DNA from: a virus
Lineage: Duplodnaviria; Caudoviricetes
Reading direction: 5' to 3' (one strand)
Virus record (IMG/VR): IMGVR_UViG_3300047272_000336
Coordinates: 1 to 24,106 of that record
Length of the DNA: 24,106 bases
Position numbers and translations under genes: made by a program
Shown here: in pieces, positions 5,912 to 20,190 of the stretch
How positions within the stretch are numbered: position 1 is the first letter of the stretch
Layout of the letters: the number at the start of each line of letters is the position of its first letter
The notes under the pieces: model-generated
What the model was told of the DNA's origin: nothing
Seen by the model: the letters and a program-made list of their open reading frames with translations, nothing else
Database searches by the model: none

Positions 5912-6171
5912 CCAAATCAGATGGTGGCAAAGGCAGCGATCGACGCCCTGGCGTTGGTTATGGCGATGGCTGGGATCGAATCTTTGGGGGCAAAAAGGAG
6001 GAGCTGCACCGAAGTGCTCCGAACCTGCACCTTACTTGCTCCGAAGGTTCGGTGCGGTTGGGTGCAATGTGTGAGGAACCCCCCCAAGGGGGTTCTCACA
6101 TTGCAACCGCTTGTAAGACTAAGGTGCTCGAAAAGAGTGCACCGAACCCAGCTGCACCGAACCATAGATAG
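5908..6171 (+). CDS. Small phage protein (GKGSxRRP...WDRIFG motif); the C-terminal half runs through the repeat block
   Basis: AGGAGG SD and ATGA overlap. The N-terminal 30 aa match a recurrent small phage protein motif. Confidence 0.6.
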   Translation: MTKSDGGKGSDRRPGVGYGDGWDRIFGGKKEELHRSAPNLHLTCSEGSVRLGAMCEEPPQGGSHIATACKTKVLEKSAPNPAAPNHR

Positions 6172-11519: not shown

Positions 11520-12398
11520 GTGGCGCAATGGGGCTCAGCGATATGGGATCAGTCCTATTGGGACATGGTCTACGGCACGCTGGCCGCAACCGAGTCCGGT
11601 ACTGACACATTTGCAGGTGAGGGCGATGTCCAGCTCACCGGCTATTTGGCGGCCACAGAGACGGGCGTCGATACCTTCTCGGCCACGGGCACAGTTGAAG
11701 TCCAAGGCTACATGGCCGCAGTTGAGACTGGGGTCGATGTCTTTGCAGCAACAGGCACGGTCGAGGTGCAAGGCTACTTGGCCGCGACTGAAACAGGTGT
11801 CGATGTTTTCTCTGCCACCGGTGATGTTGAAGTTGCCGGCTATTTGGCAGCGACTGAGACGGGCGTCGATGTCTTCTCCGGTGAGGGTGATGTTGGCGTG
11901 GCCGGTTATCTGGCCGCTGTCGAGACAGAAGTCGATGTGTTCGCGGCCACCGGCACAGTCACACCACAACCAACACCTGTGCCCGTCATCACCGCCGACA
12001 TTGGCCCAGGTGATGAGAAGCAGCGACGCAAAGCACAGAAGAAACGCGACGAAGCATTTGAGCGCGAGAAGCTCGAGCGCAGCAAGTTGCGTGAAGAGAT
12101 CGAGCGCGTCATCAATCCGGTGGTGGCCAAGGCTGAGCCCGTGGTGGTGTCAGAGGCCAAGAAGTCGGTGCAGGTGCTGTCAGTTGATGGCAGCCGCGTT
12201 GGCATTGATGTGCCTGCCGCGTTTGATGTTGCCGAGGTCGCACGCATGGTGGCCGAGGTGCTTGAAGAAGCAAAGATTGAGGCCATGCGCGTGCAGCGCA
12301 GGCAAGACGCAGAGCGCGCACTTGCGATCGCTCGCGTGACCGTGGCAAGGATAATTAAGCGCAAGCGAGACGATGAGCTCTTGCTGCTTTTGGATTGA
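11520..12398 (+). CDS. Repeat-containing putative virion protein with charged helical C-terminus
   Basis: GTG start; six 22-aa repeats; ends KRKRDDELLLLLD. Confidence 0.8.
   Translation: MAQWGSAIWDQSYWDMVYGTLAATESGTDTFAGEGDVQLTGYLAATETGVDTFSATGTVEVQGYMAAVETGVDVFAATGTVEVQGYLAATETGVDVFSATGDVEVAGYLAATETGVDVFSGEGDVGVAGYLAAVETEVDVFAATGTVTPQPTPVPVITADIGPGDEKQRRKAQKKRDEAFEREKLERSKLREEIERVINPVVAKAEPVVVSEAKKSVQVLSVDGSRVGIDVPAAFDVAEVARMVAEVLEEAKIEAMRVQRRQDAERALAIARVTVARIIKRKRDDELLLLLD
11574..11969 (+). repeat. Six degenerate 66-bp coding tandem repeats (GYLAATETGVDxFxxxGxVxVx)
   Basis: Units start at 11574 and 11640 and continue every 66 nt; synonymous positions have diverged. Confidence 0.92.
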
Positions 12399-12772: not shown

Positions 12773-14278
12773 ATGGAAGAAACAATCGTTCAAGAAACGC
12801 CCGTCAAGCGCCAATGGGCAAAGGCTTTGTCAGACGCGTTGCGCGCAGCGCGTGACGCCGGCAACCGAATGGTTCCCGAAGATTTGCCGCTGGTAGGCGG
12901 CGCAAAGTTGGGCGACATGTTTTTGGGCCAAGCGCCTGAGGGTGCAGAGCGGTTGGCCTATGGCGAGCGCATGACATCAGGCCGTGGGCAAACGCTCCAG
13001 ATCAGGCCTGAAACGCTCGACTTGGCCACCTTGATTCCAATCCCTGGTGGTGGTCAAACCGGCATGGCTGCTCGCGCAGGTGGCAAGGTTGATGCTGCGA
13101 TCGGCGCGCTCAGAGCACCAAAGGTCAAACAAACCGTGGAGAACGCGCAGCGCATCGCCTACCCAGGCATCTACAAGCGCCCCGATGAAATCGCCCGCGA
13201 GGCGTCTGAAATGGTGGCTCCCGAAAACCCCATGCTCAAGCAGTTGTTTGGCGTGACTCGCGATGACCTGTATCAGATCAGCAAAGGGCGTCAGGGAAAC
13301 ATCAACCCCGTGTTGCCTGGCGCGGCTGCAAAGCCAAAAGGCAGCGCGGCTGCCGAAGGCGTGATGAACAAGCGCAACGAAAACCGAATTCTCAATACGC
13401 TGGGAGAAGCAGAGCAGCACCCCGAGCTTTACAAGGGCATGGTGGGTTGGTATGTGATGGACCCAGCCTTTCAGCGCTTGAAGGCGCTGGTGGGCGAAGA
13501 CGAGGCCATCAAGCGATACAGCCAGTTCAACGCATTGAGCGGCATGGCCTCACCTGGCAGCGATGTGCTGACTGAGTTCAACCGTGGCAGCGCGGCCAAC
13601 TGGTTGGCCAACGAAGGCCGGTTTGATGACTTTGTGAAGTACGCCGGCATGCCCGCAGATGCGCGCTATGGCCAGTTCCCCTCAGACATGATGGGGATCA
13701 TGGGTCACCCGTACCACAAGACCGCGCAAGCCCAGCCAATGCAAAAGTTTTTGGCCAAAGGTGAAGTGGACATGAAGTCGCCAAAGGTTCCGATGTACAT
13801 CGAGGCGAGCGGCGTGCCAGAGACAGGCTTTCAAACAGCCATGCCGGTGGGCGACGCGCATTGGTCGCGTGCTGTTGGCCTTGGCGACACGCGCACCAAT
13901 CAAGCCTATGGCGCAAGCGTGAGCACGCCTGAGATGTCGCAGCTCGGGCCATGGTGGCGTGATCGCATCGCGGCCAAGATGGGACTCGAATCAGTCCCAG
14001 CTCAAGCGCTTGCCTGGGGCACATTCGCCAAGCAGACAGGCGTTGACACACCTGTTGGCGCGCCCAAGCTGGAGCTGTTTGCGCAACAAATTGAGAAAGC
14101 AGCAAAGCGCATGGGCGTCACTCCTGAAACTGCTCGAGATTTGATTTTGACTGGCAAGGCTCACGCAGGCTTGGTTGGCCAAAACGGCGACATGAAAAAG
14201 ATGGTCGCTGATGAAGGGCGCAGAGCGCTTGTCTCTGCGTTGAGAAACAAATCCCAGAAGAAGGAAGAGGACGAATGA
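12773..14278 (+). CDS. Large hypothetical protein with a possible DNA glycosylase-like domain
   Basis: Long ORF with phage codon usage; ordered motifs GWY, ASP, PKVxxY, VGDAHWSR, PAQALAW. The function is inference. Confidence 0.6.
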   Translation: MEETIVQETPVKRQWAKALSDALRAARDAGNRMVPEDLPLVGGAKLGDMFLGQAPEGAERLAYGERMTSGRGQTLQIRPETLDLATLIPIPGGGQTGMAARAGGKVDAAIGALRAPKVKQTVENAQRIAYPGIYKRPDEIAREASEMVAPENPMLKQLFGVTRDDLYQISKGRQGNINPVLPGAAAKPKGSAAAEGVMNKRNENRILNTLGEAEQHPELYKGMVGWYVMDPAFQRLKALVGEDEAIKRYSQFNALSGMASPGSDVLTEFNRGSAANWLANEGRFDDFVKYAGMPADARYGQFPSDMMGIMGHPYHKTAQAQPMQKFLAKGEVDMKSPKVPMYIEASGVPETGFQTAMPVGDAHWSRAVGLGDTRTNQAYGASVSTPEMSQLGPWWRDRIAAKMGLESVPAQALAWGTFAKQTGVDTPVGAPKLELFAQQIEKAAKRMGVTPETARDLILTGKAHAGLVGQNGDMKKMVADEGRRALVSALRNKSQKKEEDE

Positions 14279-14601
14279 CACGACGCCGTTGGATTCAAGA
14301 CCGACACACGGGTGAGCTGATTGAAGTCACAGCTGACCATCAAGCCGAGCTACGCACCGACTCTGGTGCGCTGTGGGGCGATCGCTCCTATGACGGGCTC
14401 AAAGCGCCTGATGGCACAGACATCAGCTCGCGCTCAAAGCACCGCGAATACATGAAAGCCACCGGCCTCACGACAGCCGATGACTTCAAACAGACTTGGG
14501 CGAAAGCTCAAGTTGAACGAGAACGCGCCTACACACAGGGCGGCTCGTTCAGCAAGGCCGACATCGAGCGTGCCATTCATCAAGTTCAAAACAGAAGGTA
14601 A
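14275..14601 (+). CDS. Conserved phage head-region protein
   Basis: ATGA overlap; PDGTxISSRSKHREYMK pattern, commonly seen before scaffold genes. Confidence 0.8.
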   Translation: MTRRRWIQDRHTGELIEVTADHQAELRTDSGALWGDRSYDGLKAPDGTDISSRSKHREYMKATGLTTADDFKQTWAKAQVERERAYTQGGSFSKADIERAIHQVQNRR

Positions 14602-14607
14602 AAAAAT

Positions 14608-15732
14608 ATGAGCGAACCCACGACATCACTACGCGACGCAATCGAGTCCGCGCTTGAGGAGCCAGAGGCGGCAGCACCAGCTGCACAAGCAACACCTGAA
14701 CCGGCTGCACCAGTCGAATCAGAGCCTGTTGCTGTCGAAAGCGCAGAGCCTGCCGGCGAGCCTGCTGCCGATTTGAACGCACTTGCCGAAGGCGGCGAGG
14801 CTGACAACGAACAGGTTCAACAACCCGAGCGCGACGAGCAAGGAAAATTTAAGAAGACCGATGGCGTGACGCCTGGACCCAAGGCCGAGCCAAAGCAGCA
14901 AGCTGCCAAGGCTCCTGCGTCATGGCGTCCCGAGGTGCGCGAGCATTGGAATCAGCTGCCCGACACCGTGCGCGGTGAAATCGCTCGCCGTGAGTCCGAG
15001 GTGGCCCGCACCCTGCAAGAAACCGCAGAAGCGCGCAAGACTGCCGAGGCGGTGATGAAGACGATCGCCCCGTATGAGGCATTCATCAAGGCCGAAAACA
15101 GCTCGCCCTTGCAGGCAATCGACAACCTGATGAGCACGGCGGCGCGTTTGCGCACCGGCACAGCGCCCGAGCTGGCGACCTTGGTGGCCGGCATCGTGCA
15201 GCAGTTCGGCGTTGGCCGATTCGGCAATGGGTTTATCGAAGCGCTCGATTCAGCGCTGGCAGGGCAAACACCACGCCTTGATCCCCAGCAGGCCGCGATT
15301 GACCAAGTGCTCAACCAGCGCCTGGCTCCGATCCAAAGCATGTTTCAGCAGTTCCAGAGCGCTCAGCAGCAGCAACAACAACTCGTTGCACAACAAGCGC
15401 AAAGCGAAGTTGAGCAGTTTTTGAACCAATCCGAGTTTGGCAACGATGTGCGCGAGGACATGGCCGACTTGCTCGAGGCCGCACAACGCCGTGGCCAGTC
15501 CATGACCTTGAAACAAGCCTACGACAAGGCTTGCATGCTCAATGACAGCGTGGCCAAGGTGATGCAGCAGCGTCGCCTATCGCAAGGTGCTCAAGTGCAG
15601 ACCCAAGCAGCTCAGCGCGCCAGGTCGGCTGCGGTGAGCGTTTCCGGTAGCGCGCCGGTGGGTGCATTGCAGCAACCCGCCACCGATGTGCGCTCTGCGA
15701 TCGAGGCAGCTATTCAGATGTCCTCACGCTGA
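14608..15732 (+). CDS. Putative capsid scaffolding protein
   Basis: Acidic Pro/Ala-rich N-terminus, RDEQGKF, APASW, helical body; immediately upstream of the capsid gene. Confidence 0.8.
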   Translation: MSEPTTSLRDAIESALEEPEAAAPAAQATPEPAAPVESEPVAVESAEPAGEPAADLNALAEGGEADNEQVQQPERDEQGKFKKTDGVTPGPKAEPKQQAAKAPASWRPEVREHWNQLPDTVRGEIARRESEVARTLQETAEARKTAEAVMKTIAPYEAFIKAENSSPLQAIDNLMSTAARLRTGTAPELATLVAGIVQQFGVGRFGNGFIEALDSALAGQTPRLDPQQAAIDQVLNQRLAPIQSMFQQFQSAQQQQQQLVAQQAQSEVEQFLNQSEFGNDVREDMADLLEAAQRRGQSMTLKQAYDKACMLNDSVAKVMQQRRLSQGAQVQTQAAQRARSAAVSVSGSAPVGALQQPATDVRSAIEAAIQMSSR

Positions 15733-15741
15733 TGCCATAAT
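15713..15741 (+). promoter_or_regulatory. Putative promoter TTCAGA-N17-CATAAT with extended -10 TG
   Basis: TTCAGA at 15713-18, TG at 15733-34, CATAAT at 15736-41, upstream of the capsid leader. Confidence 0.4.
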
Positions 15742-15914
15742 CACACCACGGGGCAAGAAATTGTCCTTGGTGTGCCCAAGCACCCCAGCCACCGCATGAT
15801 CTTAGGAGACGCCAAGGCGTCCCACCTACGACGAAGTCGGACTGTGAAAGGTTCGCGTAGGCGCATCTGAAAAAAGGTGAGCGCAAGCTCGTTTTCAATC
15901 AGATGAAGGATCAT
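15742..15914 (+). ncRNA. Structured RNA leader of the major capsid gene (unassigned family)
   Basis: Four hairpins, two capped by GNRA loops (GAAA, GCAA), plus a long-range stem 15796-15803/15907-15914 over the SD. Confidence 0.65.
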
Positions 15915-15919
15915 CAATC

Positions 15920-16891
15920 ATGGCATTCCCAAATGTAAGCGACATAGTCGCAACCACCATCCAAAACCGTTCGCGTCAAATCGCGGACAACGTTACTAAA
16001 AACAACGCCCTCTTGGCCCGTCTGAATCAGCGCGGTAATGTCAAGACCATCTCCGGCGGTAATGTAATTTTCGAAGAACTGTCTTTTGCTGAGAACGCAA
16101 ACGCCGGTTTCTATTCGGGTTACGACTTGCTGCCCGTGGCTGCTCAAGATGTCATCTCTGCTGCTGAATTCCAGATCAAGCAGTTCGCAGTTCCTGTCGT
16201 TATGAGCGGCTTGGAAATGTTGCAGAACAGCGGCAAAGAACAGTTCATCGACTTGCTCGAAGGCCGTTTAAATGTGGCCGAAAGCACCATGATGAACAAG
16301 TTGGCTCAGTCCATCTACTCTGACGGTACTGGCTCTGGCGGTAAAGAAGTCACCGGCTTGAACGCTGGCGTTCCTTCTGACCCCACTACCGGCACTTACG
16401 GTTCGATCGACCGTGCAACCTGGACCTTCTGGCGTTCAAAGTTGTATGACTTCAGCGCTCAAAGCGTGACCCCCAGCGCCACCACCATCCAAGCCGCAAT
16501 GAACTCGTTGTGGTCTTCTTTGGTTCGCGGTACTGACCGTCCCGACTTGATCGTGTTGGACAACAACTACTGGACTTACTACATGTCCAGCCTGCAAGCC
16601 CAACAACGCTTCACCAGCCCTGAAACCGGCAACCTTGGCTTCCCCACATTGAAGTTCATGGACGCTGATGTGGTGCTGGACGGCGGTATCGGCGGCTACT
16701 GCCCTGCCAACACCGGCTTCATGTTGAACACCAAGTACCTCAAGTGGCGTCCACATGCACAGCGCAACATGGTTCCGCTGTCGCCTAACCGTCGCTACGC
16801 CATCAACCAAGACGCAGAAGTGCAAATCTTGGCTTGGGCCGGCAACTTGACTTGCTCTGGTGCTCAGTTCCAAGGTCGCATCCAAAACTGA
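15920..16891 (+). CDS. Major capsid protein
   Basis: 323 aa after the scaffold; strong high-expression codon bias (GCT/TCT/CGT/ACT); HK97-fold-like pattern (IADNVTKNNALL, IYSDGTG, PDLIV). Confidence 0.9.
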   Translation: MAFPNVSDIVATTIQNRSRQIADNVTKNNALLARLNQRGNVKTISGGNVIFEELSFAENANAGFYSGYDLLPVAAQDVISAAEFQIKQFAVPVVMSGLEMLQNSGKEQFIDLLEGRLNVAESTMMNKLAQSIYSDGTGSGGKEVTGLNAGVPSDPTTGTYGSIDRATWTFWRSKLYDFSAQSVTPSATTIQAAMNSLWSSLVRGTDRPDLIVLDNNYWTYYMSSLQAQQRFTSPETGNLGFPTLKFMDADVVLDGGIGGYCPANTGFMLNTKYLKWRPHAQRNMVPLSPNRRYAINQDAEVQILAWAGNLTCSGAQFQGRIQN

Positions 16892-16920
16892 TTTTGGTAG
16901 GCCTGTCGTGGGTCACCCTT

Positions 16921-16959
16921 CCCGAGGGACTGGGGTGACCCACGCCCCTCGGGCTTTTT
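16921..16959 (+). terminator. Intrinsic terminator with a competing upstream antiterminator strand
   Basis: CCCGAGGG (16921-28) pairs with CCCTCGGG (16946-53), with an apical TGGG-GTGA-CCCA hairpin, followed by CTTTTT. Confidence 0.7.
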
Positions 16960-17193: not shown

Positions 17194-17808
17194 ATGCAAC
17201 CCACGACCCCTACTATCTTTGAGGACCCCTCAGATTTACCCATGCCCGACGAAAGTCGATTCGAGCATGACAACAAGTTGTACATCGAGTTCTCGCGTAA
17301 ACCGCGCCTCCACCCTGGCAAAAGCCGTGAGGAAGGCCGCGCCATTTACGAAGAGATCGACTACTTGCGCATCCATGTCCCAGGCGACAAATCGTCAGTC
17401 GTGGAGCGCCCAGTAAGCCAGCTCGACATTCAGCGCTTTGCTGACCGTTACAACAAGTGGAAAGCAGGACAAGCCGAGGCCGTCATTGGCACGCCCTTGA
17501 CTGCTCTGCCTGGCATGACCCCCGCGAAGGTTGAGGAATACAAGTATTTCAAGATCATCACGGTGGAGCAGTTGGCCGAAGCGAACGATGGCCTCGGCCA
17601 AAAGTTCATGTCCTTCAACCAGGACAAACAACGCGCCAAAGCATTCATGGAAGTCGCACGCAACAACGCGCCCATCGAAAAGATGAACGAAGAGTTGACC
17701 AAGCGCGACGCAGAAATCGAGAACCTCAAAACGATGGTAGAGGCTTTGCAGGCTGCTCAAACGAGCAAGACCCGCAAGGTTGCAGCAACAGCCGAAACGG
17801 CTGAGTAA
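17194..17808 (+). CDS. Conserved phage protein with HhH-like segment and C-terminal coiled coil
   Basis: TPLTALPGMTPAKVEEYKYFKIITVEQLAE segment; position between capsid and tail adaptor. Confidence 0.8.
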   Translation: MQPTTPTIFEDPSDLPMPDESRFEHDNKLYIEFSRKPRLHPGKSREEGRAIYEEIDYLRIHVPGDKSSVVERPVSQLDIQRFADRYNKWKAGQAEAVIGTPLTALPGMTPAKVEEYKYFKIITVEQLAEANDGLGQKFMSFNQDKQRAKAFMEVARNNAPIEKMNEELTKRDAEIENLKTMVEALQAAQTSKTRKVAATAETAE

Positions 17809-17824
17809 GTAAAGGGAGCGCGGG

Positions 17825-18583
17825 ATGCCGAGCTATCAAATCATCGACGACACATCGTTGTCGGCCATTGTTCAAAATGTGGCCGCGATGGTTGGGTATC
17901 CCCCGCCTGCCGATCCTGCTGGGTCAACTGACCCTGCGGTGATCCAGATGGTGCAGGCCGCGAACATGGCCGGCACAGAGCTGCTGTCGATGTACGACTG
18001 GCAGGAGCTCATCAAGTATTACGACATCTCAATCTATGCGGACACCAACGGCCAACGCGAAAAAGCGTTCGACCTGCCGGTGGACTTTTACGATTGGATC
18101 GATCAAACCAACTGGAACGCGACCACTCAGTTTCCCTCGCTGGGCCCCGTGTCTCCACAGATGTGGCAGCAGCTGCTGATCCGCATCACATTGCCCACCT
18201 TGTCCTTTTATTGGCAGGTGCGCGACAACAAGATTTATGTCTTAGCGCCCCCCAACGCGCCACAGACAATGAAGTTCTTCTACTTGTCGAACGCTTGGGT
18301 CCGCGACCAGGACAACAGCGATCTGTACAAGAACCGCATGACGAAGAACGGGGATGTGGCGTTGCTTGATGCGACGCTGATGATCCTCTACACCCGCGTC
18401 AAGTGGCTCGAGATGAAGGGCTTGGATTCAAGCGCTGCGATGCGCGACTTCCAGATCGCCTACGAGAACCGCAAGGCGTCCGAGAAGGGCGCATCTGTGT
18501 TGTCGATGGCTCGCGACTTCCGCATTCCCTACATCCAACCGCTCACCAACACGCCTGACACCGGCTACGGGGGGCTCGGCTGA
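17825..18583 (+). CDS. Head-tail adaptor / tail tubular protein A-like
   Basis: Size and position; YDWQEL, FDLPVDF and DVALLD segments; GGGAG SD. Confidence 0.7.
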   Translation: MPSYQIIDDTSLSAIVQNVAAMVGYPPPADPAGSTDPAVIQMVQAANMAGTELLSMYDWQELIKYYDISIYADTNGQREKAFDLPVDFYDWIDQTNWNATTQFPSLGPVSPQMWQQLLIRITLPTLSFYWQVRDNKIYVLAPPNAPQTMKFFYLSNAWVRDQDNSDLYKNRMTKNGDVALLDATLMILYTRVKWLEMKGLDSSAAMRDFQIAYENRKASEKGASVLSMARDFRIPYIQPLTNTPDTGYGGLG

Positions 18584-20190
18584 TGCCAGTCGTACCTCTC
18601 AAGCCATTCAAGACTCCGATCAAAGCGGCAGCTGGTCAGGTGTCTCAGCTGTTCAACACACCGCCCCCCACGGGCGGTTTGAATTTGCGCGACCCCATCA
18701 GCGAGATGTCACAGCTCGATGCGATCGTGCTCGACAACTTCATTGCGCGCCAGCAAGGCGTGGAGCTGCGCAAAGGCAGCCGCGTCCACACCGAAGCGCT
18801 CGAGGGCGTCACACAGTACGAATCGATCTTCTCTTACAACGCGGCTGACGCCGGCGAGAGCAAGGTTTTCGCCGCGTTTGATGGCGACATCTACGATGTG
18901 ACAGAAGACCCTGCCACGGTGTCGCAAAGCGCTACGGGTAGCGCCACCGATCAATGGTGGACGACTCAGTTCTCGACCACATCGGGCAGCTACTTGCTGG
19001 CCGTGTCGCCTGGCGCTGGGTATTGGACCTATGACGCAGCCAACGGCTGGGTTGATCGCACAGCGTTGACTGTTGGACTGCCAAACAATGTGCGTACAGT
19101 TTCCGTGTGGAAAGAGCGCATTTGGTTCACTTGCGAGGGTGACTCGGATGTTTATTACATGCGCGCGGTGAATGCCATTCAAGGGCATGCTGACGCATTC
19201 CCGATGGGCTCGGTCCTGCGCAATGGCGGTAGCGTGTCTGCCCTGGCCAACTGGACCATTGACTCAGGCTTCTCGGTAGACGATTTCCTAATTGTCATTG
19301 GCACAGAGGGCGACATCGGCGTGTGGTCAGGGACCGATCCCACCAGCGCCGACACCTTTGGCTTGAAGGGCGTTTGGTACATCGGCCCCGTGCCTCAATA
19401 CGGCGTGTATTTCACGCCCTTTGGCGGCGACATCATGATCTTGAGCCAACAGGGGCTGATTCCCCTGTCAAAGATCGTTGCAGGCCAATACAACGAGGCT
19501 GCGGCCAACACGATGCCTGCATCGAAGATTCAGCCCGCGTTGGTCAATGCGCTGACGCTGCTGAAAGATGTGCCCGCGTGGAATGTGATGATGGTCCCCA
19601 AGGAGAGCATCCTCATCATCAAGTTGCCTGTGGATGTGTACGGCCAGTATCAGCAGTTTGTGATGAACACCATCACCGGCGCTTGGTCCACCTTTTCAAA
19701 TCTGAAGATGGTGTGCACCACGCTCTTGGGTGGCCAGCTCTACTACGCCGACAACAATGGCCAGGTGGTCAAGGGCTTGTTTGGCCAGTTTGACAACGCA
19801 GACATCGACGGCAACAACGGGGCCGCGATCGAGGGCGATGTGCAGGCCTCGTTCAACTCGTACAACACGCCCGCGCAGCTCAAGAAGTTTCAGATGGTTC
19901 GCCCCATCTTCATCTCTCCCAGCGCGCCCAGCGTGAAGCTGCAACTCAACACGCAGTACGCGCTCAACAATGTGACCGGCGCGCCCGCGTTCACCGATCC
20001 GAGCAGCGGCATTTGGGACGGCAGCAACTGGAACCAGGCTTACTTTGCCGGCAGCGCCAACACTTACCAAGCGTGGGTGGGCGTTTTCGGTTTGGGTTAC
20101 TACGGCTCGCTGCGCATGAAGGTGAAGGGCCTGCCAGGCACGATCCTGACCTCCACGCATGTGATGTCCGAAATGGGGGGTGTCATGTGA
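18583..20190 (+). CDS. Tail nozzle / packaged-DNA stabilization protein (P22 gp10 or T7 gp12-like)
   Basis: N-terminal PPTGGLN...AIVLDNF...LRKG; beta-propeller-like composition; follows the adaptor. Confidence 0.78.
   Translation: MPVVPLKPFKTPIKAAAGQVSQLFNTPPPTGGLNLRDPISEMSQLDAIVLDNFIARQQGVELRKGSRVHTEALEGVTQYESIFSYNAADAGESKVFAAFDGDIYDVTEDPATVSQSATGSATDQWWTTQFSTTSGSYLLAVSPGAGYWTYDAANGWVDRTALTVGLPNNVRTVSVWKERIWFTCEGDSDVYYMRAVNAIQGHADAFPMGSVLRNGGSVSALANWTIDSGFSVDDFLIVIGTEGDIGVWSGTDPTSADTFGLKGVWYIGPVPQYGVYFTPFGGDIMILSQQGLIPLSKIVAGQYNEAAANTMPASKIQPALVNALTLLKDVPAWNVMMVPKESILIIKLPVDVYGQYQQFVMNTITGAWSTFSNLKMVCTTLLGGQLYYADNNGQVVKGLFGQFDNADIDGNNGAAIEGDVQASFNSYNTPAQLKKFQMVRPIFISPSAPSVKLQLNTQYALNNVTGAPAFTDPSSGIWDGSNWNQAYFAGSANTYQAWVGVFGLGYYGSLRMKVKGLPGTILTSTHVMSEMGGVM

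Follow-up and report, generated by a model that had tools for sequence, protein, structure and literature searches.

The locus and its genes

The window, by which we mean the whole 24,106-nucleotide stretch of viral DNA that was analysed, encodes a primase, a terminase, a portal, a scaffold-like gene, a major capsid gene and tail genes. Between the stop of the scaffold-like gene (15732) and the ATG of the capsid gene (15920) lies a gap of 187 nt, of the size first described, and it is this leader that we have studied (Table 1). The capsid protein has its closest cultured relatives in Stenotrophomonas phage BUCT555 (73.5%) and Myxococcus phage Mx8 (64% identical), and a search by sequence for a relative of solved structure found none. 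PHROG and Pfam searches with the scaffold-like protein returned no family. The 108-aa protein encoded upstream of it contains no cysteine; its predicted fold is of low confidence (pTM 0.35), no structural match was found and its Atlas clusters are all unnamed. Among its longer homologues, 7 of the 33 tested carry a weak zinc ribbon of the FmdB type (FmdB being our label for the Pfam family concerned), all of them under the Pfam cut-off. The 108-aa gene is retained in phages that do not have the leader, and it was not found upstream in L551, where it was looked for.

Table 1. Features of the capsid leader and its flanking genes (positions in the window)
Feature	Position	Strand	Remarks
108-aa basic protein, candidate ligand	14275..14601	+	Mx8 p46 homologue; some longer homologues with weak FmdB-type zinc ribbon
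Putative scaffolding protein	14608..15732	+	role inferred from position and composition; 43% identical to Mx8 p47
Predicted sigma70-type promoter	15713..15748	+	-35 15713-18; extended TG 15733-34; -10 CATAAT 15736-41; predicted +1 15748
P1	15742..15774	+	15742-48/15768-74 (extension) and 15750-56/15761-67; core hairpin 15750-67 in both isoforms
5' strand of ON helix X (15769-76), overlapping hairpin P2	15769..15783	+	P2 15772-75/15780-83
ON helix Y with loop 1	15786..15844	+	15786-94 with 15838-44; CCA 15789-91 opposite A15841
OFF closing stem P0, anti-SD/SD	15796..15914	+	15796-803/15907-14; fold, partner permutation, sister pairs
P3 and its ON extension P3b, with loop 2	15803..15828	+	P3 15808-12/15817-21; P3b 15803-06 with 15825-28; A15807 opposite CCA 15822-24
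OFF helices P4 and P4b	15825..15861	+	15825-30/15856-61 and 15838-43/15850-55; dismantle both A/CCA loops
Switch strand 15860-70	15860..15905	+	pairs with 15769-76 (X, ON) or 15899-905 (P5, OFF; 15864-70/15899-905); GCAA hairpin 15879-90 (15879-82/15887-90)
Major capsid protein, podophage type	15920..16891	+	phrog_9953 E 1.6e-113; NF033394 E 1.6e-95

The description of this region as an overlap-packed late operon holds in part, as a further gap of 84 nt follows the capsid gene. Past the capsid stop, window positions 16893-16958 form a long hairpin, and pairing is possible between its loop and an 8-mer that lies downstream, immediately ahead of a U run; the element may act as a pseudoknot or as a two-state terminator. 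In the tail gene at 17825 (window 17780-18690), a long stem formed with the gene's own coding sequence buries both the SD and the start codon (z -5.7), and two more tiles of the same gene also fold unusually well. Elsewhere in the window, an ORF at 11520-12398 contains four repeat copies at 66-nt spacing (window 11622-11960), and near-perfect inverted repeats with a repeated 9-mer (window 6049-6150, z -7.0) lie downstream of the primase gene and look like DNA hairpins or an origin.

Conservation of the leader

When the best 80 capsid homologues in IMG/VR were picked by capsid protein alone, 42 of the 80 had the same core within 200 nt upstream; several of the remaining loci had too little upstream DNA or a different leader, and some relatives (L057, L058) are nearly gapless before the capsid gene. 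A DNA pattern taken from the 5' half of the leader found 120 loci, with the capsid gene next in 100; among the other 20, one was at a contig edge and none had the 3' core. Of the 362 pattern loci, 107 match the whole motif, and in every one of these the gene that follows is the same podophage capsid gene. Clustering at 95% reduced the set to 73 leaders, i.e. 66 in the family of the window (family 1), six in a sister family (family 3) and one chance match that was dropped, with one start codon and two promoter calls adjusted by hand. The leader is therefore conserved in 66 distinct family-1 relatives. In a tree of 95 capsid proteins family 3 is sister to family 1, with the HNH-filled alleles and family 2 (both described below) nested inside. 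Loose core patterns gave mostly chance matches, with the capsid gene following at 7 of 122 viral loci and at none of 120 loci in bacterial genomes, so that the host could not be identified by this route. The isolate-derived match L147 was discarded as a carrier, having no capsid homologue. A conserved leader peptide was likewise rejected, since an ATG or GTG stands at +1 in only 20 of the 66 leaders and the frames range from 3 to 43 codons.

The earlier note had not recognised the leader as a named riboswitch or ribozyme, and Rfam agreed, with no matches in the window or in 20 homologous loci other than chance ones at E values up to 10. Resemblances to HDV-like, twister, SAH and glycine motifs, judged by eye, were dropped as Rfam gave no match to them.

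A predicted closed fold that occludes the translation start

Every helix of the original drawing is present (Table 1), and the four-way junction into which they close is the minimum-energy fold of 15730-15935 (-76.5 kcal/mol, z -4.86, none of 200 shuffles as good). For 15742-15919 the folding z was -4.2 on the + strand and -2.7 on the - strand. Four of 68 window tiles (20 shuffles each) have a lower z than the leader, so stability alone does not make it unique. The closing stem P0, which was said to bury the AAGGA of the SD, does so for all but the first A (15906), which lies outside it. We refer to this structure as the OFF fold.

Stem P0 is kept in the relatives. It reaches -4 kcal/mol or lower in 61 of the 66 leaders, and true partners pair better than swapped ones (mean -6.97 against -5.56 kcal/mol; swapped partners did as well in none of 2000 permutations). 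For P5 own partners likewise beat swapped ones in all 2000 permutations. One of the two negative controls in this test gave 13/2000, which reveals a pull of relatedness, and in contrasts between 33 disjoint sister pairs P0 and P5 each scored 8 for and 3 against (p 0.11, not significant). P0 forms in 60 of the 66 computed ensembles, occluding the translation start, and the full-length RNA folds OFF whether it begins at the predicted +1 or upstream, with a mean unpaired probability of the SD of 0.16 and 0.18, respectively.

An intrinsic terminator or attenuator, i.e. a GC hairpin followed by a U run, was looked for in the leader and none was found; some relatives have U runs after P5b, and these pair back in P5. 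RNAalifold on a plain alignment recovered only P2, P3, P4b and P5b.

A second, mutually exclusive fold

The earlier reading drew the OFF fold only. A second fold, which excludes the first and is also conserved, can be built around helix X, in which 15769-76 pairs with 15860-67. This pairing is possible in 66 of 66 leaders and removes P2, P5 and the end of P4. When X is forced, the best fold of the window also holds helix Y and a shifted base of P3 (P3b, 15803-06 with 15825-28), and Y and P3b each carry a 1x3 internal loop with a single A opposite CCA. We call this the ON fold.

On a 54-leader alignment that had not been fitted to it, the 15 pairs of the ON fold are paired in 98.4% of 810 cells, 53 of which are double changes; no shuffle of 500 scored as high, and slid controls reached 18-47%. 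Double changes occur at all six counted pairs around the P3b loop. The third pair of P3b is kept in 65 of 66 leaders, with nine double changes, and the same base pairs within the OFF helix P4 in 51 of 66; pairs 4-6 of P4 also show double changes (7, 7 and 4). The presence of double changes in both P3b and P4 indicates that two mutually exclusive helices are both selected. Sister-pair contrasts for P3b ran 6 to 0. X and Y are nearly invariant inside family 1 and so show almost no covariation there. Family 3 repeats the ON layout in other letters: the sequence of X differs, the 3' strand of Y is itself the anti-SD, and the terminal C-G of Y is G-C in all six leaders, a change that is probably one inherited event.

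Covariation in homologues, which had been set as a check on the stems, was thus found in the ON fold (54 leaders) and in P4 (66 leaders), and the view that the pairing acts at the RNA level is borne out by conservation and by pairing kept in relatives. Structure and conservation together make it well supported that the leader is a real, conserved RNA element without a catalogued family.

A predicted promoter would give two RNA isoforms

The predicted promoter overlaps the scaffold stop, and its -35 box sits within the final codons of the scaffold-like gene. Over the 66 leaders the -10 box has the consensus NATAAT (A2 59, T3 58, A4 63, A5 63, T6 52), the extended TG is found in 46, TTG occupies -35 in 42, and the base at the expected +1 is a purine in 54; the search favoured the consensus within about 40 positions, so that these counts lean upward. 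The predicted +1 would place the CACACC arm of P1 upstream of the RNA start. P1 therefore needs correction as first drawn: its 5' arm is the discriminator of the predicted promoter, and the full helix would exist only in RNA read through from the upstream operon, where the extension (15742-48/15768-74) would block helix X. The CACACC arm nevertheless keeps its pairing with GGUGUG, often via G-U pairs, and the sister contrasts for the P1 extension are 7 to 0. The pairing of the extension is hence under selection, and the read-through RNA probably matters too.

We computed the folding of the two isoforms at a cut 12 nt after the X strand begins. Helix X formed in 56 of 66 promoter-started RNAs and in 4 of 66 read-through RNAs, and helix Y in only 19 of the 66 nascent RNAs. 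When 13 nt more had been transcribed X was left in 5 of 66, giving a short capture window. The energy gap between the ON and OFF folds of the full-length RNA has a median of 10.4 kcal/mol; this gap and the early loss of X imply that the ON fold is a folding intermediate unless it is held.

These results bear on an explanation that needs no ligand, in which the point of RNA start, or a ribosome that terminates at the scaffold stop, determines whether the P1 extension forms, the 30S subunit loads within a brief co-transcriptional interval and the loops only shape the fold. The strong isoform effect on X, the selection on P1 extension pairing and the position of the scaffold stop 9 nt before the P1 arm all fit such a kinetic switch, and T4 has late promoters inside hairpins (PMC2988022). 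However, X collapses before the SD is transcribed, and the explanation does not account for the same A/CCA letters recurring, often twice, in unrelated leaders (see below). We regard it as unlikely.

Freshwater and river RNA-library contigs cover the leader in five of eight runs (X1-X4 and X9; not X5-X7). One spans 15726-15922 with no differences and begins 22 nt upstream of the predicted +1. Such contigs show neither strand, start nor level, and DNA may be present in the libraries; the scaffold body is almost uncovered by them, which carries no evidential weight.

The A/CCA loop recurs in unrelated leaders

We defined a strict loop as the A/CCA loop with three pairs on each side. It is present in 83 of 83 family-1 and 6 of 6 family-3 leaders, which is partly circular as many of these were found by patterns containing the loop. 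It is also present in 5 of 5 family-2 leaders, 3 of 9 HNH-filled leaders and 9 of 22 other leaders, Mx8 among them, where shuffles give about 0.1. For a test on unseen leaders, capsid loci were collected with the Mx8 protein; of the 79 examined, 52 had been seen before, four were too short and 23 were new, one of which belonged to family 1 and was set apart. The strict loop occurred in 14 of the 22 that were left, with two or more matches in 11 (shuffle 0.09), and A/CCA was the top one of 256 loop types; the other eight had no strict loop. Judged by eye, the unseen leaders comprise about eight sequence groups with the loop and seven without. The loop was absent from all 37 regions examined upstream of the scaffold gene and was not enriched before three other genes. 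Its single A is invariant, and it is closed mostly by C-G.

In the capsid leaders of L710 and L712 the A/CCA loop stands in directly repeated hairpins, like tandem operators. The leaders of L077, L079, L714 and L724 carry a different repeated hairpin-loop word, which may be a second recognition motif; the strict A/CCA loop is absent from L079, L714 and L724.

A riboswitch for a small molecule or an ion, coupling capsid synthesis to the state of the host, would share the layout of an aptamer plus an expression platform, as well as invariant unpaired bases, with the leader. We nevertheless think it improbable: besides the lack of an Rfam match, the regulated gene is structural, and what is conserved is a 10-nt loop that turns up again in unrelated scaffolds rather than one complex pocket.

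Effect of the loop fold on the ribosome site

With X, Y and P3b forced, the ribosome site became computationally cheaper to open in 65 of 66 family-1 leaders (median 15.2 to 7.3 kcal/mol), and forcing the loop fold in 25 other leaders lowered the cost in 18 and raised it in one. Decoy 1x3 loops lower the cost too: in 22 family-1 leaders by 3.4 kcal/mol, compared with 5.3 for the motif, and in the other leaders by 2.0 compared with 2.7, the motif doing better than the decoys in only 16 of these 25. With the loops forced, SD accessibility rose by more than 0.2 in only four of 28 leaders (in the window from 0.05 to 0.73), fell in two and was unchanged in 22. Support is therefore mixed: the ON label is fair for families 1 and 3, whereas in other leaders it is uncertain.

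In other phages, coat and scaffold proteins act as autorepressors, and the loops could instead bind capsid or scaffold protein for repression, for protection of the mRNA or for assembly on the capsid mRNA. The 22 leaders in which SD accessibility did not respond point in this direction, as does L710, in which both loops form with the SD still paired. Against this, in families 1 and 3 the loop fold excludes the SD helix or the P5 helix that supports it, and 75-130 nt separate the loops from the start codon downstream. We consider a role other than activation rather unlikely, and the direction of control moderately supported.

Homing-endonuclease genes in the same gap

An HNH endonuclease frame of about 200 codons occupies the gap in 12 loci or more, and only 9 of the best 80 homologues of this HNH protein adjoin the same capsid gene. 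The HNH alleles keep the promoter and have GTG or ATG at the predicted +1, which suggests leaderless translation. In eight loci (L024, L035, L036, L045, L452, L528, L534 and L698) we observed a free-standing HNH gene that starts at the predicted +1, has a 5' hairpin and ends by overlapping the capsid SD or start. In L040 a second HNH-like frame (1218-2001, - strand) separates the scaffold gene from an intact leader, and a new -10 box is present there with the customary spacing to P1.

The first 70 bases of the HNH alleles can be aligned with the family-1 leader if one gap of some 14 nt is allowed. The letters of P2 (in the region 15769..15783) match the V-C-x-K-H-P codons of the HNH alleles at the locus, with the best match at the same position in five of six (p 0.005-0.11); the same knuckle is present in one HNH protein elsewhere, so that it is native to the protein. 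Under a relaxed rule the coding sequence contains an A/CCA loop in 11 of 11 HNH alleles at the locus, against 3 of 52 elsewhere. The leaders of family 2 are copies of the 3' half of the HNH gene that have suffered deletion. Searches for the leader core in the HNH alleles did not find it (p 0.5-1.0), and nhmmer with a leader profile against HNH and family-2 DNA gave no match. We lean somewhat towards the 5' third of the leader being a relic of an older HNH insertion that was joined to an older core, although the order may have been the reverse.

The whole leader could be a decaying homing-endonuclease remnant, kept only for its promoter and SD. The HNH genes in the gap, the alignment of the 5' part of the leader with HNH 5' ends and the origin of the family-2 leaders are what this would produce. 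For the core, however, it is largely refuted and very improbable, since the core is absent from the HNH alleles and present in sister family 3, nhmmer gave no whole-leader match to HNH DNA, and covariation argues for selection on structure.

A proposed mechanism

On balance we favour the view that the leader is a translational switch through which a phage protein activates the major capsid gene, and that this protein would do so by holding the twin-loop ON fold. RNA would start at about 15748, as the promoter predicts, leaving out the 5' arm of P1. In the computed folds the nascent RNA would then pair 15769-76 with 15860-67, and Y and P3b would provide the two 1x3 loops; the completed RNA would drop by about 10 kcal/mol into P4, P5 and the anti-SD stem, i.e. 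the OFF fold. A protein bound to both loops could trap the ON fold until ribosomes load. In read-through RNA from the upstream operon the X strand would be locked in P1, and the RNA would be mostly OFF. A translational switch for capsid synthesis, as the earlier note proposed, thus stands as the best reading, with the responsiveness to scaffold or capsid inferred and only half of the folding drawn. Nothing was found in favour of the other proposal, a processed structural RNA.

Within this mechanism the scaffold protein is the leading candidate ligand, at somewhat under even chances. It is favoured on logic alone, because free scaffold signals a need for coat; scaffold and capsid genes are present throughout. 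The capsid protein is a possible ligand, a host factor a less probable one, and the 108-aa upstream protein the least probable of the four.

Relation to known systems

By analogy, the leader would be closest to Mu Com/mom activation with a T4-like start-site effect added, without being a member of either system. In Mu, the proposal is that the phage protein Com exposes occluded translation start signals by binding RNA upstream of them (PMC6483171). A translation start occluded by P0 in the computed folds is also found here. The weak zinc ribbon in seven of the 33 longer homologues tested recalls Com; the 108-aa protein itself has no cysteine. Com is described as binding a hairpin beside the inhibitory stem, whereas here the pair of 1x3 loops would form solely in an alternative, long-range fold, capsid synthesis is the target and the ligands are candidates only. 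The T4 late-promoter RBS hairpins (I-TevI, segB and Aeh1 mobE) have a promoter inside the 5' arm of the stem (PMC2988022). Here too the read-through and promoter-started RNAs fold differently, with a predicted start inside the P1 5' arm, and free-standing HNH genes occur in this setting as well. In T4 the truncated stem itself hides the RBS, whereas in the capsid leader both isoforms contain the SD stem, and the choice of start would act via a three-helix relay.

P22 scaffolding protein reportedly represses its own gene, and an assembly protein may likewise report its free level to translation here. The P22 analogy of the earlier note is not directly transferable, as the element precedes the capsid gene, none of 37 scaffold upstream regions has the A/CCA loop, and the logic points to activation rather than autorepression.

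The A/CCA loop fits the definition of the C-loop in size and first base: the C-loop, as defined in PMC9516175, is an asymmetric 3x1 loop whose long strand starts with C and is a protein-binding site in viroids. It differs in its mostly C-G closure and its invariant single A. Fremin et al. (PMC10690425) list candidate cis-regulatory RNAs from IMG/VR upstream of the GP20, GP32 and PHA00201 capsid genes, and the leader resembles these as a predicted cis-regulatory RNA before a phage structural gene. No sequence or contig match to it was found in the four supplements of that paper that the comparison covered, and a prior listing is possible. The main-text passages of Weinberg 2017 that we compared make no mention of capsid, and our literature search found no paper on such a scaffold-capsid leader.

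Implications for capsid control

Tailed phages must match coat protein to scaffold, and we know of few post-transcriptional controls of a coat gene that have been described. A wider, speculative reading is that the leaders form a family-wide sensor of capsid assembly, in which free scaffold would bind the twin A/CCA loops on nascent capsid mRNA and license coat translation, the site having been rebuilt in many unrelated leaders and in the invading HNH genes, one of which would have left its 5' end in this switch. In family 2 an HNH gene with an A/CCA loop in its coding sequence has decayed into a non-coding leader, so that a route from mobile gene to regulatory RNA is visible. The finding provides a defined candidate RNA switch and a 10-nt recognition motif that members of a capsid family share, and since Myxococcus phage Mx8 is a carrier in culture, the idea is open to direct testing.
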